Of a stretch of 64,000 nucleotides of DNA, positions 22,981-64,000 are shown one piece after another. How positions within the stretch are numbered: position 1 is the first letter of the stretch; each line of letters starts with the position of its first letter. The translations under genes and the position numbers were made by a program. The notes under the pieces are model-generated. The model worked only from the letters and a program-made list of their open reading frames with translations. It did not search any database and was not told the DNA's origin. This DNA comes from Escherichia coli (GTDB lineage: Bacteria; Pseudomonadota; Gammaproteobacteria; Enterobacterales; Enterobacteriaceae), in the NCBI RefSeq assembly GCF_003018115.1, contig NZ_CP027457.1; one strand, 5' to 3'.

Positions 22981-22986
22981 GATTAT

Positions 22987-23026
22987 AAGCGCATGTTATT
23001 GTTTAACATGCGCTTTTTTATTTTTC
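22987..23026 (+). terminator. Rho-independent terminator of serX
   Basis: aagcgcatgtta / taacatgcgctt 12-bp stem followed by ttttatttttcc. Confidence 0.7.
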
Positions 23027-23129
23027 CTTCCAGACAGTATGCCATCGGGTATGCCATCTGAAACCGGTTTATATGCCCCGCGATCATATCTTATCGGACA
23101 ATTTCCGATCTTTGAGCATACTGGCAAAG

Positions 23130-23971
23130 CTATACTGCCAGCATGTCAGGATAGTGTTTTGCGATAATATCATTCAGTCTGTCAACCAGTTCTGGTTTTC
23201 TGAACGTGATATGCGCGGAGCCCTTCTTAAAGTATCTGATGCTGAACATCTCATCTTCATAGTCCTCTTTTCCCTGAACAGATTGGATATGGTCATCCAG
23301 ATGAATGGTGATGTTTTCCCGGTTGTCGGGGATCGGTTTGCCGCTGAACAGGTGCAGCATTCTTTCCAGATCGGCAAGTCGATCGGCCTGTTGCCCGGTG
23401 ATAAGATGCCCCCCCACCGGTCCCACCTCACCAGATTGTTGACGATAATTTTACTGCCAAATTTGCAGGGTGAATTGGTTTTGTAATTCCAGCTCAGTCC
23501 CCTGAAAACGTTGATCACCCCTCGCTCAAACACTTCATCTTTGTTCTGGTGCAGTTGTTCAAACGTGCTCAGGATATTCGCTTCGCTGATTTCCGGAAAA
23601 TTATCGTACTCCAGTGACCGGTACCATGTATCACGGGCTTGTGCATCCATTAATGACAGCATCCCTGAACGTTGCATCAGGTCACGCCAGATTTCGCGGT
23701 CAAGGTTGTGGGTGATGGCTTTCATTGCGGTTTCCGGTTTCTCCATGAGCCAGCAGCCACAGCGAAAATCCTGTTTCATGGCCCAGTCCAGTGCGGTTTT
23801 ACCTCCGATGCTTTCCGCCAGCACCGAGATTTCTGCCAGTTGCCGGATAAGCGTGTCGATTTGCAGCAGTGTACTTTTTCGTACAGCCAGAATGTGGCGG
23901 ATACTGGTTGAGCAGATAACGTCCGTATGCCCGTTGACAACTTCCAGACGAGAGGCTGTGATATCAGACAT
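23130..23971 (-). pseudogene. hypothetical island protein (possibly DUF4942-like), frameshifted
   Basis: Two overlapping minus-strand ORFs (23174-23971 and 23130-23426) in different frames joined at a 7-C run (plus strand 23409-23415); tail of the first ORF is low-complexity while the second frame continues plausibly. Confidence 0.5.
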
Positions 23972-24179
23972 AATCGATTATATGAACGCATCCCGTTTGC
24001 AAAGGCATCCATTGTTCTGACATCGACGGTAGGTTGCAGCTTTATATCCGGCTTTATTGCAGCCCGGAAGCTGCGAGCCCCTATGTAATTCGCCGACTCA
24101 CGCCTCATTTCCTCAGCGGGCTTTAGGCCCAATCGATTATCCAGGTTTAGTGAGTCACGGTCTTACCTGTCTTTGTCAT

Positions 24180-25480
24180 CACGCTGGCTGCCAGAGCAAC
24201 CTTTCTGCATTCACCCTTTTGTAAAGAGTTTATGTTTATCGGTATCAGCGATTAATCAGGCCTGATACTGACATGATTTTTGTCGTATTTACGTCCGTGA
24301 GCGGCTATTGCCCACACCGTTCGCGCCAGCTTGTTTGCCATTGCGACGATTGCCACGCTGGCCGGACGACGCTTTTTCAGTTCGGTTATCCATGGACCAG
24401 GTTCTTTGGTCAGTAATGCTGCCGCCCTTGCACCATGAATAAACAGGGTTCGCAGATATTTATCACCACGTTTGCTTATTCCCAGCAGGCGGATTTTTCC
24501 TCCTGAGCCTGTCTGTCTGGGCACCAGACCGATAAACGCGGCGAATTCCCGTCCCGACTTAAAGGCGGAGGCGTCTCCCATCGTGGCAACGGCAGCGGTG
24601 GCGATTAACGGCCCCACGCCTGGGATGTTCAGTAACCGCTGACAGGTTTCATTCTGTCTGGCTACCGCCTGCAACTGCTTCTCAATGTGGTCAAGATGTT
24701 CATCAAGTTCAGTAATTCGCTGATATTGTTCATCCAGCATGTTTATCAGGTAGAGCGGTAGCCGCTCCTTCAGACGCTCCAGGGCTTCCGGCACCTCCTT
24801 CGCCAAAGCAGCACGCCCCTTGTGCGTCGTTTCACCAAATTCCAGCAAGAGACCGTGAAGCGCGTTTATTTGTGCTGTCCTGAACTTCACCAGTTGCTGG
24901 CGCATTCGGTGTAACCCCAGCGTAGCCTGTTGCTCCTCGCTTTTAACGGCGACGGATTTTACCGGCTGCTGAACCGCCAGCCAGATGGCTCGGGCGTCCA
25001 TCACATCGTTTTTATTTCCCATCACGAATGCTTTGACGAACCGGCCTTTGAGTAATCTGACCTTATGTCCCAGTTTCTGAAGCTCACGCGCCCAGTGATG
25101 AGAACCCCCACAGGCCTCCATGCCGATAAGGCAGGGTTCACGGTTGCTGAAATATTCAAGGAATTTCTCACGCTTAACCTGCTTATCGATAATCTCTCCG
25201 GTATGTTCATCAACGAAATGCACCTGCATAAGATGTTTTGCAATATCAACCCCGACAGGGATATATTTCATGGTGTGGATCCTCCAGTCTGTTGGGAGCG
25301 AAACGCATCCCGTTGGGCACGATGATGCCGGAAATCTGCGGGGATCCACACTCATCTACTTAATCCCCGAGCGGCTCATTTCATAATGTTGGGATGCGTT
25401 CATTACATTTCCTTTTTGCAGATAAATGAAAACGCCAGCCCTGTTCAGGCTGACGTCAGTGGAATAAAGTCTGGTGAGTG
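24180..25480 (-). mobile_element. IS110-family insertion sequence, boundaries approximate
   Basis: Single DEDD-type transposase gene with about 200 bp of structured upstream non-coding DNA; no terminal inverted repeats recognised, as is usual for IS110; ends not mapped. Confidence 0.55.
24252..25271 (-). CDS. IS110-family transposase/recombinase
   Basis: 339 aa from ATG 25271 (MKYIPVGVDIAKHLMQVHFVDEHTGEI...) with GGAGG RBS 6 nt upstream; track ORF is extended 28 codons. Confidence 0.85.
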   Translation of the reverse strand: MKYIPVGVDIAKHLMQVHFVDEHTGEIIDKQVKREKFLEYFSNREPCLIGMEACGGSHHWARELQKLGHKVRLLKGRFVKAFVMGNKNDVMDARAIWLAVQQPVKSVAVKSEEQQATLGLHRMRQQLVKFRTAQINALHGLLLEFGETTHKGRAALAKEVPEALERLKERLPLYLINMLDEQYQRITELDEHLDHIEKQLQAVARQNETCQRLLNIPGVGPLIATAAVATMGDASAFKSGREFAAFIGLVPRQTGSGGKIRLLGISKRGDKYLRTLFIHGARAAALLTKEPGPWITELKKRRPASVAIVAMANKLARTVWAIAAHGRKYDKNHVSIRPD

Positions 25481-25484
25481 AGAT

Positions 25485-25682
25485 TCACCGGTTCTGGTGC
25501 AGAAGCTGCAGTTGGCGCAGGGTACGGATATCCTCCCCGGCCTGTTCAATACAGGGCAACAGTGCTGCCGAATCCGTTTTATCTTCATCGTTGTCAAAGA
25601 TAATCCCCGATTCGCAGTCGATATTGTCCTGCAGCCACGCAATCAGAATATCCAGTGCTGTTTCCGTGGTTAATGATTTCAT
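25485..25682 (-). CDS. small CP4-like island protein (DUF957-like, tentative)
   Basis: 65 aa from MKSLTTETALDILIAWLQDNIDCESG...; family name from memory. Confidence 0.45.
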   Translation of the reverse strand: MKSLTTETALDILIAWLQDNIDCESGIIFDNDEDKTDSAALLPCIEQAGEDIRTLRQLQLLHQNR

Positions 25683-25693
25683 GTTGTTCCTGG

Positions 25694-26182
25694 TTACCAG
25701 TCGAAAGTGGGTAAATCCGGCAGACATTCGGCGCTGGCATCCAGATGAATGAGACTGACGCCATAACGTCGGGTAAGTGTGACAACCAGACGGCGGAACG
25801 TTTTTGACAGCCCCAGGCGTTTAAGCCGCAGAACCGGGTATGACCACGCACCGGTACGTAACAGATATCCGCTACCTGTGAAATGAATCCATTCTGATTC
25901 GCCAGTGTCATTCGTCTGATGTGACAGCGAATACAACCAGGCGTTGTCCTTTGCCGTGATATGCGCGGTACTGCAGCGTATGCCGGTCAGGGCAGCAAAT
26001 GGTGGCGTGCGCTCTGCTGATGTCCGGTCAGATTCATCAACAACACGAAGGGAGTAGCCATTGTCGCAGGCCACGTTAATCAGTTCAGCGAGATTAACAC
26101 CATCGACGTCAACGACAATTCGTCCCATGTTCAGCGCCTGCACGTTAACGCTGTCTGCTTCCAGCGTCAGGGCCAGTTTCAT
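25694..26182 (-). CDS. yeeW: YeeW-like protein
   Basis: 162 aa immediately downstream of the cbtA-like toxin gene with ATGA overlap. Confidence 0.55.
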   Translation of the reverse strand: MKLALTLEADSVNVQALNMGRIVVDVDGVNLAELINVACDNGYSLRVVDESDRTSAERTPPFAALTGIRCSTAHITAKDNAWLYSLSHQTNDTGESEWIHFTGSGYLLRTGAWSYPVLRLKRLGLSKTFRRLVVTLTRRYGVSLIHLDASAECLPDLPTFDW

Positions 26183-26556
26183 TGTTTCGCCCCCGGATGT
26201 TTACCCAGGGTAATGTTATTTACCGTTCTGTAATTGTCGCGGGTCATCAGGCCTGTCGCCCGGCGGGCCCGGAGGATATCGATGCTGTTTATTAACTGAG
26301 AGTGGGTACAGGTGCTGAATCCCGGCTGGTCGGTACGCACCAGTGCGTATTTTTCCACGAGAAAGTTCACCGCATCGCACAGTGAAATGCCGGCCTCAAT
26401 ATGCTGCTCAATCACACGTTCATCAGCGAACGGTGTGTCATTCAGCGTAAGGCCGTAGTGCTGGTCCAGTAGTCGGGAGAGCAGTGTCTGCCAGATGGTG
26501 ACGGGAGACGGGCTGCGCGATGCCTCCCGTACGTGTGTATCGGGTAATGTTTTCAT
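26179..26556 (-). CDS. cbtA: CbtA/YeeV-family type IV toxin
   Basis: 125 aa; WQTLLSRLLDQHYGLTLNDTPFADERVIEQHIEAGISLCDAVNFLVEKYALVRTD is near-identical to CbtA-family toxins. Confidence 0.8.
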   Translation of the reverse strand: MKTLPDTHVREASRSPSPVTIWQTLLSRLLDQHYGLTLNDTPFADERVIEQHIEAGISLCDAVNFLVEKYALVRTDQPGFSTCTHSQLINSIDILRARRATGLMTRDNYRTVNNITLGKHPGAKQ

Positions 26557-26645
26557 ACTGAAGATTTTCCTGATATGAGAGATTAAATTTTGAGGAGAGT
26601 GGTGCTGTAGCGCACCGGGCCGGAGCAGACGATTATTTCGGTGGT

Positions 26646-27014
26646 TTACTTTTTCGTTTCTGGCGTCGGATAAACAGCCATATAAACGTAACCACAGCTG
26701 CCGAGGGTGTCGGCTTCGCAGGTCAGCCCTCTGGCATACAGCGTGACGGTATGCTGATGGCTGGGGCTGAGTTCACCGCTGGTGAGCATGAGTTCCAGTT
26801 GTTTCATCAGCAGCGGAAAGGCCTGGTCCAGATGGTACGCATCCGCGTCGCTGAACCGGCCTCTGATACCGGCGCGGTCTGCAAGGTAATGCAACCGGTT
26901 ACCCTCCTGCACCAGACGTGCCCCAAAACAGGGCGTCACGGTGCAGGGTAGCCCCCACCAGGGGCGGTCGTTGTTATCGTCGGGATGCGTTGTCCCGGGG
27001 AGAGTGTCTGACAC
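26646..27014 (-). CDS. cbeA: CbeA/YeeU-family type IV antitoxin
   Basis: 122 aa; MSDTLPGTTHPDDNNDRPWWGLPCTVTPCFGARLVQEGNRLHYLADRAGIRG is CbeA-like. Confidence 0.8.
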   Translation of the reverse strand: MSDTLPGTTHPDDNNDRPWWGLPCTVTPCFGARLVQEGNRLHYLADRAGIRGRFSDADAYHLDQAFPLLMKQLELMLTSGELSPSHQHTVTLYARGLTCEADTLGSCGYVYMAVYPTPETKK

Positions 27015-27093
27015 GATAAAATCCTCACAGAAAATTGGTTAAGAATGGTCCGGTGGTGGCGATAATTCTGCTCTTCTGAATGCCCTTCCAGAC

Positions 27094-27315
27094 TCAGTTC
27101 AGGGTGACGCTCATCAGCCGGACATACGGACCGAAACTGTCCTTACGGCGTTCTGCAAACACAGCCAGCACACCGGGAATATCCTGCACTTCACGGCCGG
27201 TATATGTATCCGTGCTACCGTGCCAGCGGTATTTACCGGTACAGAACGGAAAAAGACGGGATGCAGGATGCTGACGGTGAATACGCATGGCTTCACCACG
27301 GGGGATGATTTTCAT
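27094..27315 (-). CDS. yeeT: YeeT-like small protein (DUF987-like)
   Basis: 73 aa between radC-like and cbeA genes. Confidence 0.55.
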   Translation of the reverse strand: MKIIPRGEAMRIHRQHPASRLFPFCTGKYRWHGSTDTYTGREVQDIPGVLAVFAERRKDSFGPYVRLMSVTLN

Positions 27316-27401
27316 GAGAATAGTCCTCCTGAATGTGAAAGTAAGAAACAGCTGAGAAAGAGAAACTGAAGTGATATGAAGGTGATTGTGACGGTGACGG
27401 G

Positions 27402-27893
27402 TTAAAGCAGTCCGTGTTCCGCAAAGGAGAAAACCTGGCTGCCACCGACTATCAGATGGTCCGGCACCCGGATATCCACCAGAGCCAGTGCCTGTACCAG
27501 ACGTTCCGTGATAAGGCGGTCTGCCTTGCTGGGTGTGACTTCACCGGACGGGTGATTGTGCGCCAGCACCACGGCAGCGGCATTGTGATACAGGGCGCGT
27601 TTAATCACTTCCCGGGGATGGACTTCCGTGCGGTTGATGGTGCCGGTGAAGAGGGTTTCACCGGCAATCAGCTGATTCTGGTTGTTCAGATACAGCACCC
27701 GGAATTCTTCACGCTCCAGTCCCGCCATGTTAAGAATCAGCCATTCCCGTGCCGCACGGGTGGAGGTGAAGGCCACGCCGGGTTCATGAAGATGGCGGTC
27801 CAGGGTTTTCAGGGCCCGCAGAATGAGACTGCGCTCGCCGGGCGTCATCTCTCCGGGCAGAAAGGAAAGCTGCTGCATTGTTCCTGCCTCCAT
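27402..27893 (-). CDS. yeeS: RadC-like JAB/MPN domain protein
   Basis: 163 aa with JAMM motif HNHPSGEVTPSKAD. Confidence 0.8.
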   Translation of the reverse strand: MEAGTMQQLSFLPGEMTPGERSLILRALKTLDRHLHEPGVAFTSTRAAREWLILNMAGLEREEFRVLYLNNQNQLIAGETLFTGTINRTEVHPREVIKRALYHNAAAVVLAHNHPSGEVTPSKADRLITERLVQALALVDIRVPDHLIVGGSQVFSFAEHGLL

Positions 27894-28379
27894 TCAGTCG
27901 ATGATGCGCATAATGGCGCTGCATTCCGGATGCTGCAGGGCGTAATCCCGCAGCCGGTAATAATGGACCGTCATGGCATAACACTCCGTACGACAGGCAT
28001 GATGACTGTACGTCATCAGACAGGCAGCAATGCCGGCGGCTTCCGGACTCATTTCAGCGCGGTTACCGTTCATGGCATTGAACAGTACCCATTTTTCGTC
28101 ATCATCGTCATCCGGTTCAGGTGCCATAAATGCCCCGCCGTTGTTCAGGGTGTACAGATTCCAGATACCACCGCAGTAGTCTTCGCACAGACGGTCCATC
28201 CAGCCGAAAACACGGGGCTCCAGGGTCACCCACTGTGGAATGAGGCCAAAATGCTGCGGCCAGAAGCTGATGCGCTGTTCATCAGGGACTATGGTGGCAA
28301 CCAGCTGAGGCTGGTCATTCCCTGATGCAGCGGTTACGGAAACAGAAGGAGTGGTGGAATTATGCAAGACGGTTGTCAT
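27894..28379 (-). CDS. antirestriction protein (ArdB/KlcA-like, YfjX family)
   Basis: 161 aa acidic protein; ATGA overlap with downstream radC-like gene. Confidence 0.65.
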   Translation of the reverse strand: MTTVLHNSTTPSVSVTAASGNDQPQLVATIVPDEQRISFWPQHFGLIPQWVTLEPRVFGWMDRLCEDYCGGIWNLYTLNNGGAFMAPEPDDDDDEKWVLFNAMNGNRAEMSPEAAGIAACLMTYSHHACRTECYAMTVHYYRLRDYALQHPECSAIMRIID

Positions 28380-28470
28380 GAGATGATTCCTTATAAAAAG
28401 TAAATGAATGGAAGAAACCCCGGGGGAAGGGACAGACGTGAGTCAGAACTGCGCTTTCAGGGAAAAGGCA

Positions 28471-29289
28471 TCAGCACATGCTCTCCAGCAGCGTTTCAGC
28501 CATCACCCACAATGCGCGGTTGAGCTTAATATCGGTGTCGATGCTGTGAATGGCCCGGGTATGGATACGTTTTCCTCTGGCACTGCGACCGGAAATCCCG
28601 CCTTTCAGCATATTCTCCTGGATGGTCTGATAAGCACTCCACAGGTCCTTACCGTAATCCTCCCGGCGTCGTGGCGTCAGAATGTCGGCGGTGGTGACGG
28701 GCTGATGTTCGTCACCATAACGGTAAGTCAGTGCCGCCTGTGCCAGCGCCTGGCGTGCCGGTGGCGGCAGAATCAGCGACTGCATGGCATCACGTTTCTC
28801 TTCAATCCGGTCAAAAACCCCCACCACCTCGTAAGCACCTTCAATCACCCTGTCCACCACGTTTCCCCGGTGTGGCACCCGGACTTCTCCCAGCGACTGA
28901 CCGCAGACCAGGCCATTGGTGCAGATGGCACGAAAATATCCGGGTAACATCTGGTAGCTGGATGAACCGTCATGGGAGTTGAGCAGAATAATTTCAGGCA
29001 CATGCTGACCGGTTATCTGTCCGGCCCGCCGCAGACGCAGCATATGTTTGGTATATTCCCGGCGGCTCTGGTCGCGCACACGGGTCTGGCAGGCGAAGAA
29101 CGGCTGAAAGCCTTCCCGCTGCAGATTTTCCAGGACGGTGATGGTGGGAATGTACGCATACCGTTCACTGCGGGAGGTGTGCCGGTCTTCTCCAAAAATA
29201 CTCGGGACGTGGTACATCAGTTCTTCGCGTGTCAGTGGGCGCTCCCGACGGATCTGATTTACATGACCAAAACGACTGGCTAATTGCAT
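28471..29289 (-). CDS. DUF932-like protein (YfjQ/YafZ family)
   Basis: 272 aa in the conserved CP4-like gene order. Confidence 0.6.
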   Translation of the reverse strand: MQLASRFGHVNQIRRERPLTREELMYHVPSIFGEDRHTSRSERYAYIPTITVLENLQREGFQPFFACQTRVRDQSRREYTKHMLRLRRAGQITGQHVPEIILLNSHDGSSSYQMLPGYFRAICTNGLVCGQSLGEVRVPHRGNVVDRVIEGAYEVVGVFDRIEEKRDAMQSLILPPPARQALAQAALTYRYGDEHQPVTTADILTPRRREDYGKDLWSAYQTIQENMLKGGISGRSARGKRIHTRAIHSIDTDIKLNRALWVMAETLLESMC

Positions 29290-29688
29290 ACTTTGCTCCT
29301 TATGAATGAGTTAGCGGTATAAACGAAAAGGCCGCGTCTCCCGGAGAAGACGCGGCCTGATGGATGAAATGAAGACGTTTATTGCCTGAGAATTCCCTCA
29401 CTGGCGAGATACGGATTTAGCTGTTTTCCGGCATCAGATTCAAAATTCCAGCACCGCCAGCGCAACTGACCTTCAGCGTTGCGGATCACCAGACGAAAAT
29501 GCGTACCCGGGTCATCCTTGATAAACACATTGCGGTAAGCGGTTATGACAGCAACCGCCTGCCCGTATGAGAAAGATCCTTCAGCCAGGACATACTCTGT
29601 GTGTAACCCGGCATATCTGGTTTCTCCTGATAAATAGCCTCTGCCACAACGTATGGCAGAGGCTGAAGCATGAAACTGACTTCAGGGA

Positions 29689-30144
29689 TCAGTTAACATT
29701 TTTTCCGGAAACGGTAATCAGCAGTGGATGGTAGTCCTGGGGATCGAAAACCGATAACGGCAGACTGACACGATGGCCGTTACTTTCTTCAGTTGCTTTA
29801 ATGATTTCGGTTGTGGCGACATTTTCCACGCACTCCGTTTCCAGAAATGCGTCTGTGGTTCGCGTGGCATTACTGTCACCAAAGGCTTCCGTTTCCATTT
29901 TTCTGGTCACCAGCGTCTGACCATATTTGTCTTTGAGTTGCAGAGTGATGGTGAGGGGGCCAAATCCTTCATAGTTTCCGCCATTATCCAGCCGGAACTG
30001 GTAGGCACAAATATTTCCCGGGAGCCATATCGTATCTGTATTGCGTATACTGATGTAACGTTGATCCTGTGCCCGGAGTGGGGCAGACCACGTTAACCCC
30101 AGAATGAAGGCGGTAATCATGCAGGTTTTGAACAGGTGAATCAT
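29689..30144 (-). CDS. hypothetical secreted protein (YfjT-like)
   Basis: 151 aa with signal peptide MIHLFKTCMITAFILGLTWSAPLRA. Confidence 0.5.
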   Translation of the reverse strand: MIHLFKTCMITAFILGLTWSAPLRAQDQRYISIRNTDTIWLPGNICAYQFRLDNGGNYEGFGPLTITLQLKDKYGQTLVTRKMETEAFGDSNATRTTDAFLETECVENVATTEIIKATEESNGHRVSLPLSVFDPQDYHPLLITVSGKNVN

Positions 30145-30219
30145 GGTATTTACCTCTCTGAGTCATGACGATGACACTGACAAATCAGGTGATAAAACGT
30201 AAAAGGCGCAGAATAGCCG

Positions 30220-32742
30220 TTATGCCGGTAACTCCGGGGGTAATGCTTCTTCCAGTCGGTTAACCATCTTGCCGAGATGGGATACATCATATTCCATGAC
30301 GGGGCGTTGCCTGATGATACTGACCACCAGTGGTTTGATTAACATATTGGTCGCGGCCCGTTGTTGTATACCGGCGGCGAAAATGATCTCCAGAGCATTC
30401 TGATCGATAACACGGGCCAGATTCGCGTTCAGATTTTCAATCTCATGTCCGGTCAGCAGGAAACTGCCGGCAAGCCATGTCACCTGCTCCTGAATCATTG
30501 CCAGAATTTTGACGCGATCTTCTTCAACCAGCGCTCCGGCAATTTTTCCTGATACAGCGGAGGCAATCATTCCCCCCAGAACACCGCCAACCACACGTCC
30601 TGTCAGTGCACCAAATGGTCCCAGTGGACTGAACAATATCCCGCCCGCCACTGACCCGACAGCACCACCTGCCACACCGGAAGATGCCACGGCAAGATTC
30701 CTGATGAACTGCGCACCGGAGATCCGTCCCCGCAACATTTTGATCATGTCAGGGCCGGTTGTGACAGCGACCAGTGCCAGAGATGTCACCAGCGTACCCT
30801 TCATCACTTTGTTCAGGGCACTGATATTTCCTGCACCGGTCCCCTTCTGAAGCGCCTGCCGGACAGTCGGGCTGGCCGTCGAAAAATCAATATGCTTCAG
30901 CATACCCTGAACAACACTGAGCCGGTGAAGTTGCTGGGTTGTGACGTAGACAGCCAGTGTGCGGGTGAAGGTTTTTCCTGCCTGGACAGCAGCTGTCTGC
31001 AGGGCAGCATCGCGATCGCCGGTGCTGAGCCAGAAGACCGATGCCGTCAGGGCAAAACTGATCCCTCCGGCCGCCAGACTGACAACCGCCCCCTCGGCAA
31101 TATCATAAGTGACCGATTCGATGGTCCCGAACCGGGTGATATTACGGGCCTGGGTATAAGTCAGATGTCCCCGACGAATCAGCCGGGACGCTTCTGCGGG
31201 ATCGGTTACACCGGGTACTTTACCTTCGCGGATCTTATTCTTCATGGTTTCCACAGCGCCGGCATACTGATCACGGGGGACTTCCAGTTGCATGGGACCA
31301 TGATTTCCCATGTAACGATACTGTCCGTTTTGTCCGTCGAATGCCGCACCGACGCTACGGGCTGCAGTTGAACAATATTTCGTCTGGATTTCTGTTCCGC
31401 TGACCAGTCTGTCTGCTCCATTTCTGGCATTATTATCACCGAGGATCCGTGCGTTTTTCAGACGGACTCTGTCGACAATATGGTTTCCCCGTTCAGCGGC
31501 AAACCCATGTCCCTGCCCTCCGGAAGCAAACATTTTCTCATTTGTACTCCAGGTTTCCGGCAGTTTCATGAGAATCAGACCATTCGCCGTTGCATCGGAA
31601 ATAAAACCGGTGTAAGAACGTTCATAAATGTCCTGACACAGTGTTTCTGTTTCGCGACAAAGAGAGGAGCAGTACCATTCCGGATCCGGCTTATGATTTT
31701 CCGGGGCATGATGTACTTCTGTCAGCCCGCAGGAGGCACAGATACGAAGCTCATCCACGTGGTGGAATGATACAAAACGGCGGCCTTCTGAAAAGGGGTA
31801 CCAGTCACCGCCGTCCAGGCAACGATCGAGAAAATCGTCATTCGCTTCCGGTGATAAATTCAGGCGGTTCCGGAAGAGGGTTTTCAGTTCATCAGGGGTA
31901 AATGACAGGCTCTCTCTCAGCTTTTCGTTGAAACCCGCCATGTTTCTTTCATACCAGGCATTGTCCAGTAGCCAGTTTCCGTCTGCCAGTTCAAATTCCC
32001 TCAGCTCTCCCCGGGAAATCCGTTGTGAAATGAGTGTCAGCCAGATGCGCTCCGTCAGCGTTTCAGGAAGGCTGTAATCGTTTTGCAAACTGCTCAGCCA
32101 CGATTTACTGTTGAGCACCGGTTGTTCTTCCAGTGTCTGGCGGATGGCACTGGTCAGTCTTTTCAGCGCCTGGATCTGGCTGGCCGCCCATAGCAGCGTC
32201 ACTAATGCAGCCAGCCAGTACAACAACCCGCCCCACCACATCAGTGAGGGTGAAATATCGAACTGCAATGCGATCAATGGTGCGTATGCAGAACACGCCA
32301 TAAGGAAAAAAGCAGTATAAAAACAGCAGTAATACCCGTTAATTTCCTTGCTGATATCTTCAGGTGTGAGCCCGTTCTGCTGAATGGTTCTTATCTGCAC
32401 GGGAAGAGCCAGCAGACCAGCAGCGAGAGCGGTGGTCAGAATAAATTTTACAGAGTCAAAAGTATGAGCCTCCAGTGCGATATGTTTACCATCAAGTCCC
32501 CACATGAAGCTGATGATCATTCCGGCAATCGTCAGAAATACGCCTGCCAGCCAGCGAATATGGAATAACCGGGTTATGCGTTCAGTGATATAGCCAGCCA
32601 GTAAAGCCGGGCCGAACAGACACAGCAATACGAATCCTGCCAGCGCAGACGCCGTGCTGGTTAATGCTCTGAACAAAAGGCGAAGAATGGCAAATCCTGC
32701 GATCAGCAGAATCAGCGCGCCGACTATCTGTAACATAGTCAC
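30220..32742 (-). CDS. yeeR: YeeR-like inner membrane protein, full length
   Basis: 840 aa, multiple N-terminal TM helices and Gly-rich C-terminal segments; directly downstream of flu. Confidence 0.7.
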   Translation of the reverse strand: MTMLQIVGALILLIAGFAILRLLFRALTSTASALAGFVLLCLFGPALLAGYITERITRLFHIRWLAGVFLTIAGMIISFMWGLDGKHIALEAHTFDSVKFILTTALAAGLLALPVQIRTIQQNGLTPEDISKEINGYYCCFYTAFFLMACSAYAPLIALQFDISPSLMWWGGLLYWLAALVTLLWAASQIQALKRLTSAIRQTLEEQPVLNSKSWLSSLQNDYSLPETLTERIWLTLISQRISRGELREFELADGNWLLDNAWYERNMAGFNEKLRESLSFTPDELKTLFRNRLNLSPEANDDFLDRCLDGGDWYPFSEGRRFVSFHHVDELRICASCGLTEVHHAPENHKPDPEWYCSSLCRETETLCQDIYERSYTGFISDATANGLILMKLPETWSTNEKMFASGGQGHGFAAERGNHIVDRVRLKNARILGDNNARNGADRLVSGTEIQTKYCSTAARSVGAAFDGQNGQYRYMGNHGPMQLEVPRDQYAGAVETMKNKIREGKVPGVTDPAEASRLIRRGHLTYTQARNITRFGTIESVTYDIAEGAVVSLAAGGISFALTASVFWLSTGDRDAALQTAAVQAGKTFTRTLAVYVTTQQLHRLSVVQGMLKHIDFSTASPTVRQALQKGTGAGNISALNKVMKGTLVTSLALVAVTTGPDMIKMLRGRISGAQFIRNLAVASSGVAGGAVGSVAGGILFSPLGPFGALTGRVVGGVLGGMIASAVSGKIAGALVEEDRVKILAMIQEQVTWLAGSFLLTGHEIENLNANLARVIDQNALEIIFAAGIQQRAATNMLIKPLVVSIIRQRPVMEYDVSHLGKMVNRLEEALPPELPA

Positions 32743-56006: not shown

Positions 56007-56719
56007 TGCCCACTCCTGCGAAGAATAGTAACAATAATATTACTGTTATTTTCAGTGACTACACCTACGTCACCACTCCAATAAGTCGTTCTAGTTACGC
56101 CATTAACGACACTATTTTGAGGAGTTCCTTCTTTGATAACACTTTCAACCATATTCGGCGTTATATTTCTCCCTGGGCCAACTGTGCCGGCTGGAGAACC
56201 AGATGGCTGCATTCTATCAACAGCATGTTGTGAATACAAACGATGACCTATTTGTGCATATTGTCGCCCATCTACTGTAACCTTTCGATAATTTTGCCAA
56301 GAGTCCCAAGGTAACTTTTCAGAACTATTAGGTACGTTTTCTGATGAGGTTTTCTCATTACGTTGCTCTATTGATTCATTATTCCTGGCGTTCTCCTCAT
56401 CCTGCGGCTCCCATCCCCCCGGTGTTCCAGCACCTGCGCCACCAAGCTCAGCTTTCTCCTTGTCCGTAGCGCTCGCTACGTCTTTGCCCAGATTCGGCTG
56501 TTTGTTTTCGTCTGTATTGTCGCCATTCAGCACATACCCCGGCCCCCGGGCACCATCGCGACTCGGATCACGTACAGCACACTGTTCCCGTGAGCCTTCA
56601 CAACCACCACCGGTATCCCAGCTATTATCATTCCCGGTATCCTTACTGGCATTACCTGTAGCACCAGCTATTGCTGCTGCCGTATTAGCTGCTGTTTCAG
56701 TGGCTATCACGTTCAGCAT
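56003..56719 (-). CDS. putative orphan polymorphic-toxin C-terminal module (no VENN recognised)
   Basis: 238 aa; low-complexity N-terminal half and compact C-terminal domain (VDGRQYAQIGHRLYSQHAVDRM...). Confidence 0.4.
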   Translation of the reverse strand: MLNVIATETAANTAAAIAGATGNASKDTGNDNSWDTGGGCEGSREQCAVRDPSRDGARGPGYVLNGDNTDENKQPNLGKDVASATDKEKAELGGAGAGTPGGWEPQDEENARNNESIEQRNEKTSSENVPNSSEKLPWDSWQNYRKVTVDGRQYAQIGHRLYSQHAVDRMQPSGSPAGTVGPGRNITPNMVESVIKEGTPQNSVVNGVTRTTYWSGDVGVVTENNSNIIVTILRRSGQ

Positions 56720-56736
56720 ATTGTTTTCAGCAACAA

Positions 56737-56955
56737 CTATTTACGATAGTATCTTCGCATTTGTAGATAGAGTTGTAACCAAATCCCAGCACCTCCCCAT
56801 AAGCCAACTACTGCGCCAATTATTCCGTATTTTACATACACCTCAGAAGGTATTGGTTCCCGAGCTATAAGCCAGATACTAACCACTATTCCAATAGAGC
56901 AAGTAGCTATAGATATAAGTAACAACTTAATAAGAAGTAGTAGATGTTTTTTCAT
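56737..56955 (-). CDS. small inner-membrane immunity protein
   Basis: 72 aa, two hydrophobic helices; start overlaps upstream toxin stop. Confidence 0.55.
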   Translation of the reverse strand: MKKHLLLLIKLLLISIATCSIGIVVSIWLIAREPIPSEVYVKYGIIGAVVGLWGGAGIWLQLYLQMRRYYRK

Positions 56956-57870
56956 TTTTTGTCTCCATCAACTTCTTTTTGCGTTGCGCTGCTTGCACCT
57001 TCTGATACGAATGAACCAACAAATCCACCAAATGTTCCTGGTATAGAGCTCATTTGGCCGCCTTGATACATACCGTATCCGATAGACTTTTCCGAATATT
57101 GCAGTGAATATTTACTGGCGTCCATTCCCAGTTGATTTTTGATGTATTGAGCTTCTAACTTATTAGTAATTGAAGCCCCAATGTTATAGCCAAGGCCTGT
57201 ACCAGCCATGCTACCCACTACTGATGCGGTACTGTCCTGGCCTTCAATCTGGCTGCTCATGTAAGCGCTACCGGCACCCAACAACTGATTAGCGTAATAT
57301 CCTTTCCCGGCTGTACCTACACCAGTCAAGCCTGACATCATGAAACTGAGATAATCGAACTTATCACCGATATTTCCCGTACCAATTTGTACCGCACCAT
57401 TAGCCCCATAGCTCAGCCCGGCACTGACAAATTTTTCAGTCAGCGTGGCTGATGATGTTAACAATGAACCCGCTCCGGCAACCGTACCCCAGTAATTTTC
57501 CGGTTCCCCGAAGAAAGCCAGAGCCTTATCACCTTTCGATGTGTTGTTGTTCAGATAGTTCAGGTCATAGCTGTTACTTTCAGTGACGTAGTTCTTCACG
57601 TCCTGGTTTTCCAGCGAACCATACAACCAGCCAGGCCGACCTGCCGCGCTGAGTCCGCCCTCAATATTCCATTTATCTTCCCCGGACAGAGCCGTCAGAG
57701 GATCTGTGGCCACATCAATGTGTAATTTCTGTCGGTGCTCTGCGCTTATTACAGCATATTTATTCTGAATATCGCCGCAGTCTCCACCCACTTTACGACA
57801 GGCCGTCATTTCTCTGTCAAAAGCATGCGCCTCGTCGTAGCTGAGGTAGTTATTCTCAACAACAACTCTT
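56952..57870 (-). other. orphan cdiA-CT, glycine-zipper membrane toxin (EC93-type ionophore-like)
   Basis: Frame upstream of track ORF 56952-57809 reads ...SERVVVENNYLSYDEAHAFDREMTACRK... (VENN at about 57850); C-terminal domain rich in GxxxG motifs. Confidence 0.6.
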
Positions 57871-57960
57871 TCCGACGTAAGTTGCTGCGATGAACCCTAT
57901 TTTCTCCTTGCCTTTCCGTGAATTACAACCGTTTTCCCCTGCTGTACTTCCTGCCTGCCA
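57840..57960. repeat. repeated linker (VENN-encoding segment plus upstream about 90 bp), copy A
   Basis: Near-identical to 59207-59325 (…gagttattctcaacaacaactctttccgac[g/a]taagttgctgcgatgaaccc…). Confidence 0.5.
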
Positions 57961-58173
57961 ACTTTTTGCCCCGACGCGCCTTTTTCGTCTGAACACGCTA
58001 CCGCCCCGGTGAAAAGTCCACCGAGTAAATAGCCTGCGGCTATTTAACATAACGCGCGGGAATTATGCGCAGTTCAGGAGGCCGAACCACGCATAATCAG
58101 CGTTATGTCTTGCGCCCTTCAGAAGCCTGCGATAGTGCAGGCTGACAGTCAGGAGACCCAGACGGTTAAGATA

Positions 58174-58467
58174 TTAACTGTCGGGCTCTCCTTTTTTATT
58201 ATTTTTATAATCAATCATCAAGTTATTCACCTCATTCCATAGTTGCTCATCGTTAAATTCGTATTCTTCACGATCATTATCTGGGTTGTACATATCAGCC
58301 ACACAGAAGACACTGGATAATAATTCACTTAGATTATCATTATCTTGCTTAAGTAGGTTACTATCACGCTCACCCTTCCACTTCGCCATATAAGTGTCGG
58401 TAAAATATTCAGCCGATATATTCTTAGCAAGAAAATCATCAATGTATTTTTTAAGAGACTGACTCAT
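58174..58467 (-). CDS. putative immunity protein
   Basis: 97 aa acidic protein; start overlaps upstream orphan toxin stop. Confidence 0.5.
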   Translation of the reverse strand: MSQSLKKYIDDFLAKNISAEYFTDTYMAKWKGERDSNLLKQDNDNLSELLSSVFCVADMYNPDNDREEYEFNDEQLWNEVNNLMIDYKNNKKGEPDS

Positions 58468-59237
58468 CTTAATGTCCCGTTATTTATGAAGTTTTCATAT
58501 TGCTTCGTTTGAGGATCAAGCTTCCACCCACTAACAAAATTACCAGATTTATCAATTACAACCACATTATTAGTTTGTGGATTGAAGAACACCTTTGATT
58601 CTGGAATTAATAGGTATGTCCCATGTTCATAAGTCGTCTTATTATCTAAATGTGATTTGATGGCAGCCTGATATTCTGCAATGGTATCACTATTTTTCTT
58701 AGTTGTTATTACGCCAAAATCAGAAGCATGTTTAAATTTCTTATCTAACTGTTTTGCGCTGAAAGCGACACTATCAGAGACGATTGTAGCTCCAGCATTT
58801 GGAATTTTCTTCCCTGGAAGTATAAGGCTAGCCAGTATTCCGCCAGTTGCTTCCAGCGCAGCCTGGTTCCCTCCATACGCTTGTTTCACATTCTCTGCTA
58901 CTGCTGACCAGGTTTCACTTTGCATCAGCGCTTTAACGCTGTCTGCCACTGCCTGATTTTTACCCGCCAAATCACTCAGTGCTTTATCACAATAGCTTTC
59001 GCCGGTTGCACATGAGGCGAGCGCCATTGCCGCATCACCCACATAATCGGCTGAGCCTATTGCCGTATCACCGGAGTCAGCGATGACATTAATAATGCCG
59101 TTGGCAATAGCCGATGAGGCTCCGTCTCCCAGCTTATCCCTGACCTGTGTTTTCCACCATTCAGCACTTTGTTTGACCGATTCCCTGGCCTTATCACCCG
59201 CCAGCGAGTTATTCTCAACAACAACTCTTTCCGACAT
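58464..59237 (-). CDS. orphan cdiA-CT with its own ATG just upstream of VENN
   Basis: 257 aa starting MSERVVVENNSLAG; compact C-terminal domain. Confidence 0.6.
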   Translation of the reverse strand: MSERVVVENNSLAGDKARESVKQSAEWWKTQVRDKLGDGASSAIANGIINVIADSGDTAIGSADYVGDAAMALASCATGESYCDKALSDLAGKNQAVADSVKALMQSETWSAVAENVKQAYGGNQAALEATGGILASLILPGKKIPNAGATIVSDSVAFSAKQLDKKFKHASDFGVITTKKNSDTIAEYQAAIKSHLDNKTTYEHGTYLLIPESKVFFNPQTNNVVVIDKSGNFVSGWKLDPQTKQYENFINNGTLR

Positions 59238-59325
59238 AAGTTGCTGCGATGAACCCGGATTCTCCCTGCATTTTCCGTTAGTTACAGCCGATTTTCCCTG
59301 TTGTACTTCCTGCCCGCCAACTTTT
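59207..59325. repeat. repeated linker, copy B
   Basis: See copy A at 57840-57960. Confidence 0.5.
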
Positions 59326-59438
59326 TGTGCTGTTAAGCGTTTCTGGCCCCGCAGACGCTACCGCCCCGCCGTGACGCGCCACCATCATATAAGCAAACTA
59401 CAGCACCACTTAGGATGGTGGTGTCTTGGATTTATATT

Positions 59439-59822
59439 TCAATTAAGAAGTTCCTTTGATACGTTACCAGTATCAAAAAACTCTTTTAAGATCTTTACAA
59501 TAAGTTCACAGTCTTTTGTAAGCTGAGATTCCGGCCAGTAATCACCAAGAATCACCATTTTTGTATCAGGTTTAGATGAGTCCCAGTACGTTCTTACTTG
59601 GTATTCATCTTCAAAAATTTCACCTAATGTTATCAAGTAATAACCATTCTCCGTTCTGATCTGAAGCATTTCAGCGCTATTATCGCCACTGTTCTGTATA
59701 TCAAGAGTAAGTGTTCCTTTTTTTCCCTGAATTAGTTTAAACTGATTTAATACCATGTCCCAATTTGAGATCTGTTTATTGCCACCTGTTTCGCCCAGTG
59801 TCCAACTCACTTTAAAATTCAT
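59439..59822 (-). CDS. cdiI: CdiI immunity protein cognate to the resident CdiA-CT
   Basis: 127 aa; ATG 1 nt after cdiA stop. Confidence 0.6.
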   Translation of the reverse strand: MNFKVSWTLGETGGNKQISNWDMVLNQFKLIQGKKGTLTLDIQNSGDNSAEMLQIRTENGYYLITLGEIFEDEYQVRTYWDSSKPDTKMVILGDYWPESQLTKDCELIVKILKEFFDTGNVSKELLN

Positions 59823-59823
59823 T

Positions 59824-62800
59824 TTAATCCCTAACCTTGAGAGATTTCATGCCAGGCTGCCAGTAGAGGACTGATCCTGTAGCCTCTTCATAAATTGTTA
59901 AAGATTTTAGCCCCGCTTTATCAGCCATGGCTGCTATATCACCGCGGCAATAACCACATACAGGCTCTTTAGATACACTCATTGTCATCTCACGCCCTTG
60001 AGACATACCCTTTTCAAAAGCTTGCTGTATAACACCTACTTCAGCATGAGCTGTAGCCATATTGCCGTTAGGAAGAGGCTTGTTTTGCTTATCTATTTTA
60101 GCTTGGATTCGTCCATCAATGAGTGTTGGCTTATTCACATCTGCTAAGTTGGAAGGCCTTGCACCCTGATTAGTATCAGTAAACTTAGCTCCATCAACAT
60201 TACCTTTCGCTACGACCTTAAGATTAGCATCAACGATTTTACTTAATTGTTTTGCCGCAGCAGAACCCAAAATTGGTGTCACCGAAGCCGCAATGCTCTC
60301 CAGACCCTGCTTTGTTTCGGTGTAGCTTTCTGCGGTCTGACGATCCACCCCTTTGGTGACCATGAAATAGTTAATCATGGCGTCTTTCACCTGTTGCTGA
60401 TTCTGTGCATCAACACTGGTGATATCGAGGAGATTGACCATCTGACCATACGCATCAGCGTATTGCTGGCTGTATTTCGAGTTATAAGGGCCATCTTCGT
60501 ACCCTTCTTTCGACGCAATAACTTTCAGTCTTGCGCTGGCACACGCTGAACTACCCGCATTACCATTACCGCAGGCAGCAATAACCTCCTTATCACTGGC
60601 AATATCTTTCTCACGCAGAGCATTATATTTCTGTTGCGCCTTTTCGCGCTCTGCCGGATCTTTACTATTTTTAAGCGTCTGTTTTGCTATCTCAAGCTCT
60701 GTCTTTTCAGACACGCTAAGATAGTTATTCTCAACCGCGTTCCTGCCTGCCTGTGCCCCCGTACCGGCAGACGCCGTACTGTTGCCTGCAAGCCCGCCCG
60801 CAATACCTGAGGCAATGGTGGCCAACATGCTGATTTGCTGACGTTCCTGTTCACTCAGGTTATCAGTACGACCACCATAGTAGTTATCAATGATATACCG
60901 GGCTGCAAGTTCACCGCTGAATGCCCCTGCAGCACCGGAAGCCGCATTGTTTCCGCCCAGTTGTGCGGCAAGCGCTCCCCAGACTGCGTGAGCCATCAGG
61001 TTTGCTTCCCGGTTATCGCCGGTGGCCTGTTTTATAAGCTGTGCCACTGCCGGATTCAGACCGCCAGCCAGTATCTGCCCCGGATTCCCTGCATTCAGTC
61101 CGCCCAGCACACCCGTGATGGCCTGTACCACCATCTGCGGCGTACTGCCCGTACCGTAGCCTTTCATGACCTCTCTGTATTCCGGGGTCTCCCGCAACTG
61201 TGCATCGCTCATGCCAGGATGCTCTTTCCTGGCTGCTTTCATCGCTTCAGTTTCGCCATACGTCATGACGATGTTACTCATCTGACCGCTAATCTGGCTG
61301 ATAACCTGCGCTTCCTGCAGACGCTTCTGCTCTTTCTCCCTGTCAAATATCGGTGCAATGCTGCCGTTGGCGTTTTCCGGGTCCCGGCTGAGCCCGGCAA
61401 TATCCTGCTTCTGACTCTCATTATCACGGATAATGAGATTTCCGCCGCTGATGGCGGATGACGTGGTACCTTCAGCATGTCCACTGCTGCCGGACATACC
61501 GGTAAGTGCGTTCGCCGCACCGGCTATTGCATTTGAGGCCACCATCTGGCTGGCTGACATCCCTGAGCCACCCGATAAACTGATTCCGGTATGGCTGGCT
61601 TTATAGTCTGCCTGGTTATGGATATCCGACCAGCCCAGCGTATTGGTATTGAGGCTGTTTTTGTCATCCGTTGCCGTGGACGCAATTACCGCACCATTGA
61701 GCTGAGTGTGATTCCCAACAGTGACATCAAACCCGTCTTTTCCGGCGTAGATACCACTCTGTTCCCGGACAGAATCGTAATTGCTTTTAATTTTGTCCTG
61801 ACTGATGCTGGCATAGCCGCTGCCGGACATTGAGCCAAACGTGAAGCTTCCACCTGCAGCCACGCTGTTCTGTCTGCTGTCGTAACGGTCACTGTCCTGA
61901 AGGCTCGAAATGGTCAGGTTGTTGCCGACATCTGCTGTGACTTTCTCGCCACTGACCTGAGCCCCCGACAGGGTGGTATCACGTCCGCTTGTGAGGGAGA
62001 CATTTTTACCCGCATCCAGCGTGGTTTCGGTCCAGGTCGTGCCGTTGCCTTTCTCCCTGCCCTCTGAACCATTGATACCGGCGAAGATACTGAGGCCTCC
62101 GCCATTGGTTCCACCACCAAAGCTGACGCCCACGCCGCCACCTTTGCTGCTGTTCTTCCCGGTTGTCTGTCGGGTGTCAGCGGCGGCAGCCAGCAGAATA
62201 TCGTTCTGTGCATTCAGGCTGGTGTCATTGCCGGACTTAATCTGGCTCCCGGTAATGAGAATATCGCCGCTGTTGTTATGGTCCTTATTTTTCCCCGTGG
62301 CAGTGACAGAGACATTGTTACCGGCGCTGAGGGTTGAGCCGGAGACGATATCGTGCTGATATTTCGTCTCAGACTTCGACTGCTGATGGTTGAGCGAAAT
62401 GCTCACGCCGATACCATTATTCGGGTCAGCACTCTGTTGCTGCAGTCCGTGGTTAACACCGGCCTGTACACCAGACAGAACCGCCTGTGTTCCTTTCAGT
62501 GCCGCCAGACGGCTGTCGCTGGTTTCTTTCGCCTCCCGGGCCATGGTGGCAGCATTATTGATGGCACTGCCCACTGTGCCGGAAAGGGCAACCGTCAGCC
62601 CGCTTTTCTTCTGCTCAAATTTTTCGTCCACAGTACGACGGTCATGCCCCGGGTCAACCACCACACTGTCACCGGTAATGCTGATATCCCGGTTCGCAAT
62701 CACATCCGAACCGCTGATATGAGCCTGTTTGCCCGCGGTAATACTGACATTACCAGCAGTGGAGCCGATGGTGCTGGCACTCTGACTCTGCGTTGTCCCG

Positions 62801-64000
62801 GCCTCGCGGCGGTCGTGCGTTGTCTTACTGCTGCCAGTGGTGAAACCAATACCGCCGGTACCCGTCAGACCGGATTTCTTCGTTTCCTTAAAGCGCCAGG
62901 ACGTATCTGTACTGGTGGCAGCAAGAACATCAACATGGTTATCCGCCGCCAGTGACACATCCCAGTCAGCCACCACATCCGAACCCTGTACCGTCAGGTT
63001 ATTACCGGCGTTAACGGTCACGCGGTTTCCCGACAGCAGGGAGCCCTTCTCACGGGTGACGCTGTCTTCCGTGATGGTCCGGGTGGTCTGATGGCTGAGG
63101 AGACGGTTACGGGTTTCCCCTGATTCACTGTAGTGATAATCACTTTCCGTGGCAGTACCCAGTACGATGTCATGACCGGCATTCACACGGATATCGCCCT
63201 TTGCCGTTACAGCGGTCGCAACTGAGGTGATATCCCGTCCGGCAGTAACCGTAATGTCACCGCCACTGGTCATGTCTGTTCCCTGCTGCCGGACCGAATC
63301 ATGAACCGTCTTCATGCTGAAAGTGCTGTCGTGGTCACCTGCGCCTGTGGACTCCGCAGCCATGTTCACATCCCGTCCGGCGCGGATAGCCATACTGTTT
63401 TCAGCCGTAATACCGGCAGCCTGGCTGTTCACATCACGACCGGCGGAAAGCATCAGACTGTTCCCGGCAGTGACCGTGGGGGCCACGGCATGAGTTTCAT
63501 ACCACCCGGACCCGCCATAGCGACGACGTTCTCCGGCCTGTATCGCGTTCATGTTCAGGTCATTACCGGCGGACAGTAACACGCTGTCACCGGCAGAAAC
63601 GGCGGCACCGGTGATACTGATATCCCCGGCTGCGCCCATAAACAGTGAGTCCGTTGCCCTGACAGCAGCCAGCGGACCGGTATCCGTTCCGCTGAAATGG
63701 TTATATCCGTTGTTCATCGCCCACTGTTCTGTCCGGGTGAGGTTACTGATGTTTCCGGTGGCGCTTTCCAGGGATACGGTTTTACCGCTGATGACTGAGC
63801 TGATATTGCCGATATCCCCGATGGCCTTCAGGTTCAGTGCACCACCGGCGTTTATCAGTCCGGCATTCAGGTTGTCGATACTACCTGTGCTGTCGAGCAG
63901 GAGGTCATTCTGTGCGTTGATGCTGCCGCCGCTGTTGGTGATATTGCCACCCGCAAGCTGCACGTTGTTCCCGCTGATAACGCTGCCATTATGAAGGGTG
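59824..64000 (-). CDS. cdiA: contact-dependent inhibition toxin CdiA, 3' portion (N-terminus outside window)
   Basis: Frame open from window end to stop at 59824; filamentous-haemagglutinin-type repeats, pre-VENN region, VENN ([12 protein letters not shown], plus strand 60724-60735) and about 300-aa C-terminal toxin domain. Confidence 0.88.

Follow-up and report, generated by a model that had tools for sequence, protein, structure and literature searches.

The DNA studied here is a stretch of 64,000 nucleotides from Escherichia coli (assembly GCF_003018115.1, contig NZ_CP027457.1; the window), in which a genomic island begins directly after the tRNA gene serX and reaches the end of the sequence. 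ARAGORN finds one tRNA gene in the window, an intact tRNA-Ser(GGA) (Table 1), and the genes upstream of it in the nearest annotated genome (solA...csgDEFG-ycdZ-ycdY-ycdX-ghrA) identify it as serX. The first gene past the tRNA belongs to the DUF4942 family and is a pseudogene, having lost 1 nt compared with the copy in E. coli 1303, which is intact; it is split here into open reading frames (ORFs) at 23174-23971 and 23130-23426 and is annotated as frameshifted in the nearest genome. No full-length integrase was found in 22981-64000, and the only protein in the window with a Phage_integrase domain has 200 aa. With up to three mismatches allowed, the window has no second match to the 27 nt at the 3' end of serX, and the last 14 nt, CCCCCTCACCGCCA, have a single additional match with two mismatches, where 0.40 such matches would be expected by chance. 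An earlier description of the window from its letters alone (the sequence-only reading) had reported an island anchored at serX, a frameshifted CP4-like distal-end gene rather than an integrase beside the tRNA, a recombinase-like gene only at 38266, and no second copy of the serX 3' end, and all of these observations stand. The modules it listed are likewise all present, namely an IS110-family element, defence genes (dGTPase, type I restriction-modification (R-M) and DarTG), IS66, and cdiA with orphan pairs.

The same reading had taken everything past serX to be accessory. We constructed an artificial empty site by joining the window sequence at serX to a relative's sequence on the ycdU side, and found this query matched from end to end in 38% (2063 of 5426) of complete E. 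coli genomes; all of 22981-64000 is therefore accessory. One assignment has to be corrected, that of the terminator after serX to the core genome. The hairpin directly 3' of the tRNA gene (22987-23015) is identical in the island that strain 1303 carries at serW, and the native serX terminator, the one found directly after serX in empty-site genomes, sits at the far end of the island (attR), beside ycdU, in all relatives aligned, so that the hairpin is island DNA.

Genomes carrying the same island

The same island is found, as a single unit of 58-71 kb, in three near-identical complete genomes, at serX in E. coli 2014C-4135 and CFIAFB20180511 and at serW in 1303. The closest of all complete genomes is 2014C-4135 (NZ_CP027310.1), which is collinear with the whole window (1-64000) at 99.2-99.4% identity, the number of IS66-family copies (one in the window, three in 2014C-4135) being the sole structural difference. 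Its island measures 71,221 bp between two copies of CCCCCTCACCGCCA. From the point that corresponds to window position 64000 it continues for about 25 kb, through the rest of cdiA, cdiB, a lactate-utilisation cluster and genes for Gp2-like, DUF3987 and helix-turn-helix (HTH) proteins, to an intact 405-aa integrase of P4-type architecture (Arm-DNA-bind_3, Phage_int_M and Phage_integrase domains, in that order) that adjoins ycdU. Between this integrase and ycdU, at 160 bp from the integrase, lies TGGCGGTGAGGGGG, the reverse complement of CCCCCTCACCGCCA, followed in the orientation of the window by a hairpin terminator.

The island of 1303 (58,006 bp; clpA-int...DUF4942-serW-infA) ends in one repeat on either side and has its integrase beside clpA. 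It contains the arm running DUF4942...CbtA/CbeA...Cah/Ag43-GTPase, the HEPN-like gene, the 200-aa recombinase and the dGTPase, and its other cargo comprises a type I R-M system with the same broken darT, an M48 peptidase, an IS66-family element and cdiBAI. In CFIAFB20180511 the same backbone and cargo are found at serX, with the integrase beside ycdU; the distal repeat was not searched for there. The 14-bp repeat forms one pair in 2014C-4135 and one in 1303, and no internal copies were found in the window or in the island loci of relatives that were examined. The 2014C-4135 integrase is 97% identical to that of 1303 and 98% identical to the ycdU-adjacent integrase of O157:H7 strain Z1768 (WP_000279869.1). 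Four genomes, including those with O157-type and CFT073-type islands, agree in the attR arm and in a repeat-to-integrase distance of 160-161 bp, and the attR copy of the 14-bp repeat occurs once, in the right orientation, in 2014C-4135, 1303 and two other family members. Overall, the ycdU-repeat-integrase junction is present in 471 complete genomes.

Nature of the island and competing explanations

We believe, with a probability of about 85%, that 22981-64000 is the tRNA-proximal part, some 41 kb, of a single site-specific integrative island of the serX/serW family, to which SRL-PAI, OI-43/OI-48 (the tellurite-resistance/adherence island, TAI, or SpLE1) and PAI-CFT073-serX also belong. The anatomy, the repeats, the integrase family of the relatives and the occupancy of two alternative tRNA sites are directly established, and the insertion has the form known for P4-integrase islands at serX/serW, in that it lies at the 3' end of the tRNA-Ser(GGA) gene and leaves the tRNA intact. 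Both OI-43 and OI-48 are flanked by perfect 14-bp repeats (TGGCGGTGAGGGGG) that equal the last 14 bp of serW/serX and are identical to those of the Shigella SRL-PAI, and both have a P4-family integrase and a cryptic tRNA stub at the clpA/ycdU side (PMC3064760, Bielaszewska et al.). The OI-48-type integrase is 99% identical in nucleotides to that of SRL-PAI, and excision frequencies of 1.8e-3 and 2.0e-4 per cell were reported for OI-43 and OI-48 (PMC3064760). A review lists serX islands for CFT073, UTI89 and others and gives serX/serW as the sites of SRL-PAI (PMC7545054), for which integrase-dependent precise excision has been demonstrated (PMC3064760, PMC7545054). Because the layout seen in the relatives matches the published geometry of SRL-PAI and OI-43/OI-48, the lack of an integrase beside the tRNA is an effect of the window edge. 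The lesson for annotation is that serX/serW islands keep their integrase distal to the intact tRNA, and that a tRNA without a neighbouring integrase does not by itself indicate a remnant.

The likeness to OI-43/OI-48 extends from the serW/serX target and the 14-bp repeat to the P4-family integrase at the clpA/ycdU end (98% identity), the same integrase-proximal genes, and the Ag43/Cah-GTPase...DUF4942 distal arm beside the tRNA. The cargo differs: ter, ure and iha are absent here and are replaced by dGTPase, type I R-M/DarTG and contact-dependent inhibition (CDI) genes with orphan modules, and the island of 2014C-4135 additionally has the lactate-utilisation genes. According to PMC3064760 and PMC7545054, SRL-PAI has the same integrase, 14-bp repeats and serX target with serW as the alternative, an identity that is indirect, by way of O157; in contrast to our island, it carries a multidrug-resistance locus and the fec operon. 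PAI-CFT073-serX and PAI-UTI89-serX of extraintestinal pathogenic E. coli share the integrase family, the attR arm and repeat beside dgcT/ycdU, and Ag43, whereas their cargo consists of S fimbriae and salmochelin and their sizes are 62-113 kb. The gene order and families of 25408-37375 are also those of the K-12 cryptic prophage CP4-44, which we take to run yeeP-flu-yeeR-yeeS-yeeT-cbeA-cbtA-yeeW. The K-12 remnant is isolated and has neither att sites nor an integrase, whereas here the genes form the conserved tRNA-proximal arm of a complete island; we rejected a CP4-44-type remnant as the identity of the locus, since the gene string is only one arm of an island that has an integrase in complete relatives. 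What is new about the island is its combination of cargo; the family is known, and to a specialist the island is an ordinary member of it. No description of this variant was found in the searchable literature, the 1303 genome paper being silent on the serW island in its main text; this cargo variant is individually uncharacterised there, although the element itself is known.

To judge from the junctions, a P4-type tyrosine integrase would recombine the 14-bp island core with the 14 nt that end the tRNA-Ser(GGA) gene. At attL this would leave an intact serX fused to a terminator supplied by the island, whereas attR, beside ycdU, would hold the integrase gene, the native terminator and the displaced stub of 14 bp. 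If the source strain is collinear with 2014C-4135, its island would be about 65.9 kb long and attR would lie about 24.9 kb past the end of the window, where the predicted order, as in the relatives, is integrase, CCCCCTCACCGCCA, the hairpin AGAGCCCGTACGAAAGTACGGGCTTTTTTTT and ycdU. The conserved scaffold would consist of an integrase-proximal module (int, HTH, DUF3987, Gp2-like) and a distal CP4-44-like module (GTPase through DUF4942), between which the exchangeable cargo (dGTPase, type I R-M with DarTG, CDI) would be placed. Diversity inside this one element may arise by IS110-family and IS66 insertion, by displacement of CDI toxin/immunity tips and by exchange of small cassettes at 24-bp dyad sites that accompany the 200-aa recombinase, an enzyme separate from the island integrase. 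The far end in this strain is probably like that of its relatives, and to judge from the literature the island may still be able to excise. Its occupancy of serX and of serW in different strains shows that it has moved as a unit, and the same observation is the only, indirect, support found here for excision between the repeats.

Four points count against a single complete island. The window ends inside cdiA, leaving the integrase, attR and ycdU of this strain outside it. The nearest genome differs by 0.6-0.8% as well as in its IS66 copies, and a strain-specific truncation of the far end is therefore possible. Signs of decay are seen in the frameshifted DUF4942 gene, in the insertion sequence (IS) between this gene and its operon, and in the inactivated darT. 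Finally, conjugation or packaging genes are absent, which leaves intercellular transfer unexplained.

An immobile, integrase-less remnant, with int and attR deleted or rearranged by IS activity in this strain, would agree with the lack of an integrase and of a second repeat in the window. IS66-family elements are active (beyond the copy numbers given above, CFIAFB20180511 has a complex nest of them), and IS-mediated internal deletions, also into flanking core, are documented for OI-48 (PMC3064760). We nevertheless consider a remnant unlikely, given that the integrase is intact in three of three close relatives, that the repeat is perfect in 2014C-4135 and 1303, the two relatives in which it was sought, and that collinearity with 2014C-4135 persists to position 64000. 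The sequence-only reading had placed the far boundary beyond 64000 or considered it lost; the former agrees with our results and the latter is unsupported, as the islands of 2014C-4135 and 1303 end with an integrase and the 14-bp repeat.

That reading had also proposed serial accretion. A tandem array of several independent tRNA-targeting elements integrated at serX could account for the uneven GC content (40% at 37.4-40.6 kb compared to 49-54% elsewhere) and for modules that are distributed differently across genomes. We regard it as highly improbable, since 2014C-4135 and 1303 each have one tRNA-derived repeat pair and one P4-type integrase with no internal stub, and a single pair with no internal copy argues against tandem accretion. 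Moreover, the whole assemblage is found as a unit at serW in 1303, and its heterogeneous parts are accounted for by ISs and by exchange at 24-bp sites unrelated to the tRNA. What survives of the proposed origin is the mosaic, IS-rearranged composition: the mosaic is real, and its sources are ISs, CDI turnover, allelic recombination and site-specific cassette exchange. Accretion or an integrase-less product is unsupported, the relatives carrying one unit with an integrase, and they present essentially what that reading had named as evidence against itself, a single element at serX that has this gene content and whose integrase is intact.

We give almost no weight to the 200-aa recombinase being the truncated integrase of the island. 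Although it is the sole bearer of a Phage_integrase domain in the window, it has no detectable similarity to the serX-family integrase, and its family is uniformly about 200 aa long across genera, so that it is not a truncation. Its gene also occurs at many unrelated loci and on plasmids in E. coli, and the conserved sites that flank it are 24-bp dyads unrelated to the tRNA core. The single integrative island is thus the explanation that we retain for the features collected in Table 1.

Table 1. Features of the island and its junction with serX (window positions). PGAP, Prokaryotic Genome Annotation Pipeline.
Feature	Position	Strand	Basis
serX, tRNA-Ser(GGA), intact	22893-22980	+	ARAGORN; Rfam tRNA
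attL core/direct repeat, last 14 nt of serX, CCCCCTCACCGCCA	22967-22980		14-mer positions
serX replacement terminator, island-borne; hairpin with 12-bp stem, then T run	22987-23025	+	terminator scan, alignment
DUF4942 gene, frameshifted pseudogene, last gene of CP4-44-like arm	23130-23971	-	PGAP, relative 99.4% identical
IS110-family element, 1429 bp	23979-25407	-	NCBIfam transpos_IS110, 340.9 bits
Conserved CP4-44-like distal arm	25408-37375	-	annotation of collinear genomes
Cassette block of low GC (40%), with 24-bp dyad sites at its borders and within it	37376-40630	+	site scans, Pfam
Site A, GTCCGCTC TGTGCCAG GAGCGGAC	37376-37399
HEPN-like gene	37503-38219	-	weak RiboL-PSP-HEPN match, E = 8e-4
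B-type site	38203-38226
200-aa tyrosine recombinase	38266-38868	+	Pfam PF00589, residues 34-184
Site A', variant spacer CGTGCCAG	38887-38910
Anti-phage dGTPase	39027-40388	+	NCBIfam, PADLOC
Site Z, degenerate B-type	40607-40630
Type I R-M operon with embedded DarTG and M48 peptidase	41421-51001	+	PADLOC, NCBIfam
HTH-like gene	41421-41660	+
hsdM	41700-44138	+	PADLOC MTase_I
hsdS	44138-45445	+	PADLOC Specificity_I
darT pseudogene	about 45492-46107	+	PADLOC DarT, NCBIfam DarT
darG	46104-47171	+	PADLOC DarG; NCBIfam 441.5 bits (cut-off 250)
hsdR	47190-50285	+	PADLOC REase_I
M48 peptidase	50285-51001	+
IS66-family element	51363-53899	+	NCBIfam transpos_IS66, 450 bits; boundaries by alignment to 2014C-4135
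CDI locus, distal part	53910-64000	-	PGAP of 2014C-4135 stretch, 99.2% identical
Immunity gene of VENN-CT fragment	53910-54284	-	PGAP of 2014C-4135
VENN-CT fragment	54290-55657	-	PGAP of 2014C-4135
87-aa partner of DUF4258 protein	55743-56006	-	PGAP of 2014C-4135
DUF4258 protein	56003-56719	-	PGAP of 2014C-4135
285-aa ORF	56952-57809	-
Immunity gene of colicin-D-domain toxin	58174-58467	-	PGAP of 2014C-4135
Colicin-D-domain toxin	58464-59237	-	PGAP of 2014C-4135
cdiI	59439-59822	-	PGAP of 2014C-4135
cdiA, 3' portion	59824 to beyond 64000	-	PGAP of 2014C-4135

Cassette block around the small recombinase

The 200-aa recombinase consists of the catalytic domain only; its best NCBIfam matches are all far below cut-off, and a PDB sequence search returned no match. 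Homologues, uniformly of about 200 aa and 72-93% identical, are found in Proteus, Providencia, Pantoea, Sodalis, Idiomarina, Pseudoalteromonas and Cycloclasticus, and the gene is present in 959 of the 5426 complete E. coli genomes. The window copy has H148Q in its HxxR box and eight private changes at positions that are invariant in 12 other aligned family members, and may therefore be decayed, perhaps inactive. A perfect 15-bp palindrome, CATACTCAAATCTCC...GGAGATTTGAGTATG (38230-38268), covers the ribosome-binding site and ATG of the gene and is kept, with compensating changes, in the Proteus loci and, in part, the marine one; it may act as an operator or as a hairpin that controls translation. 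Apart from this palindrome, a search of 36-42 kb for inverted repeats of an invertible switch found only short pairs likely due to chance.

The gene is accompanied by sites of a common form, a 24-bp dyad GTCCGCTC-N8-GAGCGGAC with the spacer TGTGCCAG or, inverted, TGAGCGAG. A site ...CAGCCC-TGTGCCAnnAGCGGAC invariably follows the recombinase stop codon at a distance of about 20 bp, the conserved sequence upstream of the gene starts at an inverted site variant, and the dyads recur at the edges of adjacent genes. In random shuffles of the window the number of matches was 0-2 per 64 kb (mean 0.4), and island DNA without the recombinase gene contained no dyad site with a matching spacer. The site is low-copy, at 1-5 places in 3339 genomes, and is not a repeat of the repetitive extragenic palindromic (REP) kind.

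Genome comparisons place the breaks in homology at or near these sites. Relative to WCHEC025943, which has ParA and two other genes in place of the block, homology ends 5 bp after site A and resumes 16 bp before site Z (first break at 37405), and across hundreds of genomes it stops at 38909/38910 and resumes at 40590 or 40608. The strongest evidence for cassette exchange comes from an empty/occupied pair: EC958, of sequence type (ST) 131, has a single 24-bp site where PAR carries, between two direct copies, an array of 4,268 bp with HEC-08, the recombinase gene and two others. The alignment pieces of the two overlap by exactly these 24 bp, and the sequences of the arms are those expected from a reciprocal crossover, which supports site-specific insertion. 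Cassettes at other loci include PD-T7-1, PD-T7-5, HEC-08, PDC-S51, an LmuB-like ATPase and a ThsB-like TIR protein; the orientations of sites within arrays are not simple.

We tentatively suggest, at rather less than even odds, that 37376-40630 is not a random defence cluster and instead represents one instance of a widespread and undescribed cassette-exchange platform, in which low-copy sites in islands, prophages, integrative and conjugative elements and plasmids would serve for docking and the recombinase would add, remove and exchange cassettes there. The recombinase is thus only the presumed mover of the cassettes. Two known types of system were considered and rejected. A FimB/FimE-type invertase is similar in size; however, the NCBIfam model PRK09871 scores 19.7 bits where its cut-off is 222, the sites with the best conservation have direct orientation, and the empty/occupied pair indicates insertion or deletion and not inversion. 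For an integron we required an IntI-type integrase of about 320 aa with the IntI-specific insertion together with attI and attC sites, and found a protein of 200 aa in which PF00589 covers residues 34-184 only and sites that are 24-bp dyads.

The resemblance to integrons is one of functional analogy only: a tyrosine recombinase lies beside a series of promoter-poor cassettes, which mostly hold one gene each and in many cases are anti-phage, with short imperfect palindromes between them. In contrast to integrons, the catalytic-domain-only recombinase is not IntI-like in size and no curated NCBIfam tyrosine-recombinase model is above cut-off, the sites are not the 57-141-bp hairpins of attC, and cassettes flank the recombinase gene on either side and in either orientation, that gene being itself bounded by sites. 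A keyword search of the literature returned no description of a small-recombinase cassette system, which is weak evidence of absence. Pan-genome surveys have reported unexplained "integrase-only" defence islands with no known mobilisation mechanism (PMC10121019, Hochhauser et al.). If real and undescribed, the cassette system would explain the movement of some defence genes between hotspots, and the 24-bp sites with the 200-aa recombinase would be a simple signature for mining new single-gene defence systems.

Within the block, the dGTPase gene was assigned to the anti-phage family on the basis of NCBIfam NF041026 (560.4 bits; cut-off 400) and PADLOC dGTPase (E = 9e-145). The HEPN-like gene (product of 238-241 aa), which is divergent from the small recombinase gene and has no PADLOC or NCBIfam match, is a candidate defence cassette gene. 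In the Qin prophage of K-12 type, A-type and B-type sites flank flxA, beside relBE, and the small recombinase is absent (sites at 5004-5027 and 5995-6018 of locus L022); at the same Qin position AMA1167 has PD-T7-1 and the recombinase. We did not accept K-12 and AMA1167 as a clean empty/occupied pair, since both are occupied by different site-bounded genes. Further dyad-site or cassette loci outside the window were noted in our loci L019 (6472-10763), L020 (1972-1995), L017, L008 and L009.

Distal arm, insertion sequences and cargo

Beginning at the tRNA-proximal end, the CP4-44-like arm encodes DUF957, DUF5983, the CbtA toxin (26179-26556), the CbeA/YeeU antitoxin (26646-27014), DUF987, RadC, an antirestriction protein, DUF932, DUF905, IrmA, an 840-aa membrane protein (30220-32742), the Ag43 autotransporter (32857-35976) and a YeeP-like GTPase (36349-37221). 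The same arm adjoins serX in many genomes, including O55:H7 strains. Between RadC and Ag43 (27051-34028) it is only 92.6% identical to 1303, compared with 98-99.5% on either side, which suggests allelic replacement by homologous recombination within the arm. Rfam identified just two RNAs over the island, the tRNA and an IS102 RNA (74.8 bits; 35995-36231, minus strand) in the leader upstream of the Ag43 gene.

The IS110-family element, with its transposase at about 24252-25271 and 13-bp inverted ends (ATGAACGCATCCC/GGGATGCGTTCAT), has inserted 7 bp before the start codon of the DUF4942 gene, and the 1303 island, which is collinear apart from it, lacks the element. Related IS110-like insertions (ISSfl8) interrupt the same module in other strains (TOE17, AST198), and this may be a preferred target. 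The IS66-family element (tnpA 51453-51878, tnpB 51875-52225, tnpC 52256-53869) lies at a synteny break with the 1303 island (51225), and its copy number varies among the relatives.

The cargo is of practical interest in that it brings together anti-phage defence, adhesion through Ag43, and a CDI locus with four orphan modules that serves interbacterial competition. In the type I R-M operon hsdM, hsdS and hsdR are full-length and darG is intact. By comparison with the intact gene of WCHEC025943, darT (45447-46110) has lost its ATG start codon through an 8-bp deletion, and a 1-nt insertion near its 3' end puts its frame in line with darG. Both lesions are also found in 1303, and 2014C-4135 and CFIAFB20180511 are annotated as frameshifted there. 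We therefore rejected an intact DarTG system, even though darG passes its cut-off; darT is inactivated by the two lesions, which leaves darG as an orphan antitoxin gene within the type I R-M operon.

For the CDI region, NCBIfam gave no match on nine ORFs, and the names in Table 1 were for this reason taken from the PGAP annotation of a 99%-identical genome. The outermost orphan VENN-CT/immunity pair (53910-55657) is 99.8% identical to the primary CdiA-CT/CdiI of 1303 and, as judged from this match, is a direct example of a displaced CDI tip that has been kept as an orphan. The full orphan array is common to only one complete genome. Between site Z and the HTH-like gene, a segment of about 790 bp (40631-41420) has no annotated gene in any relative and is conserved at 93-96% in many genomes, including O157:H7.

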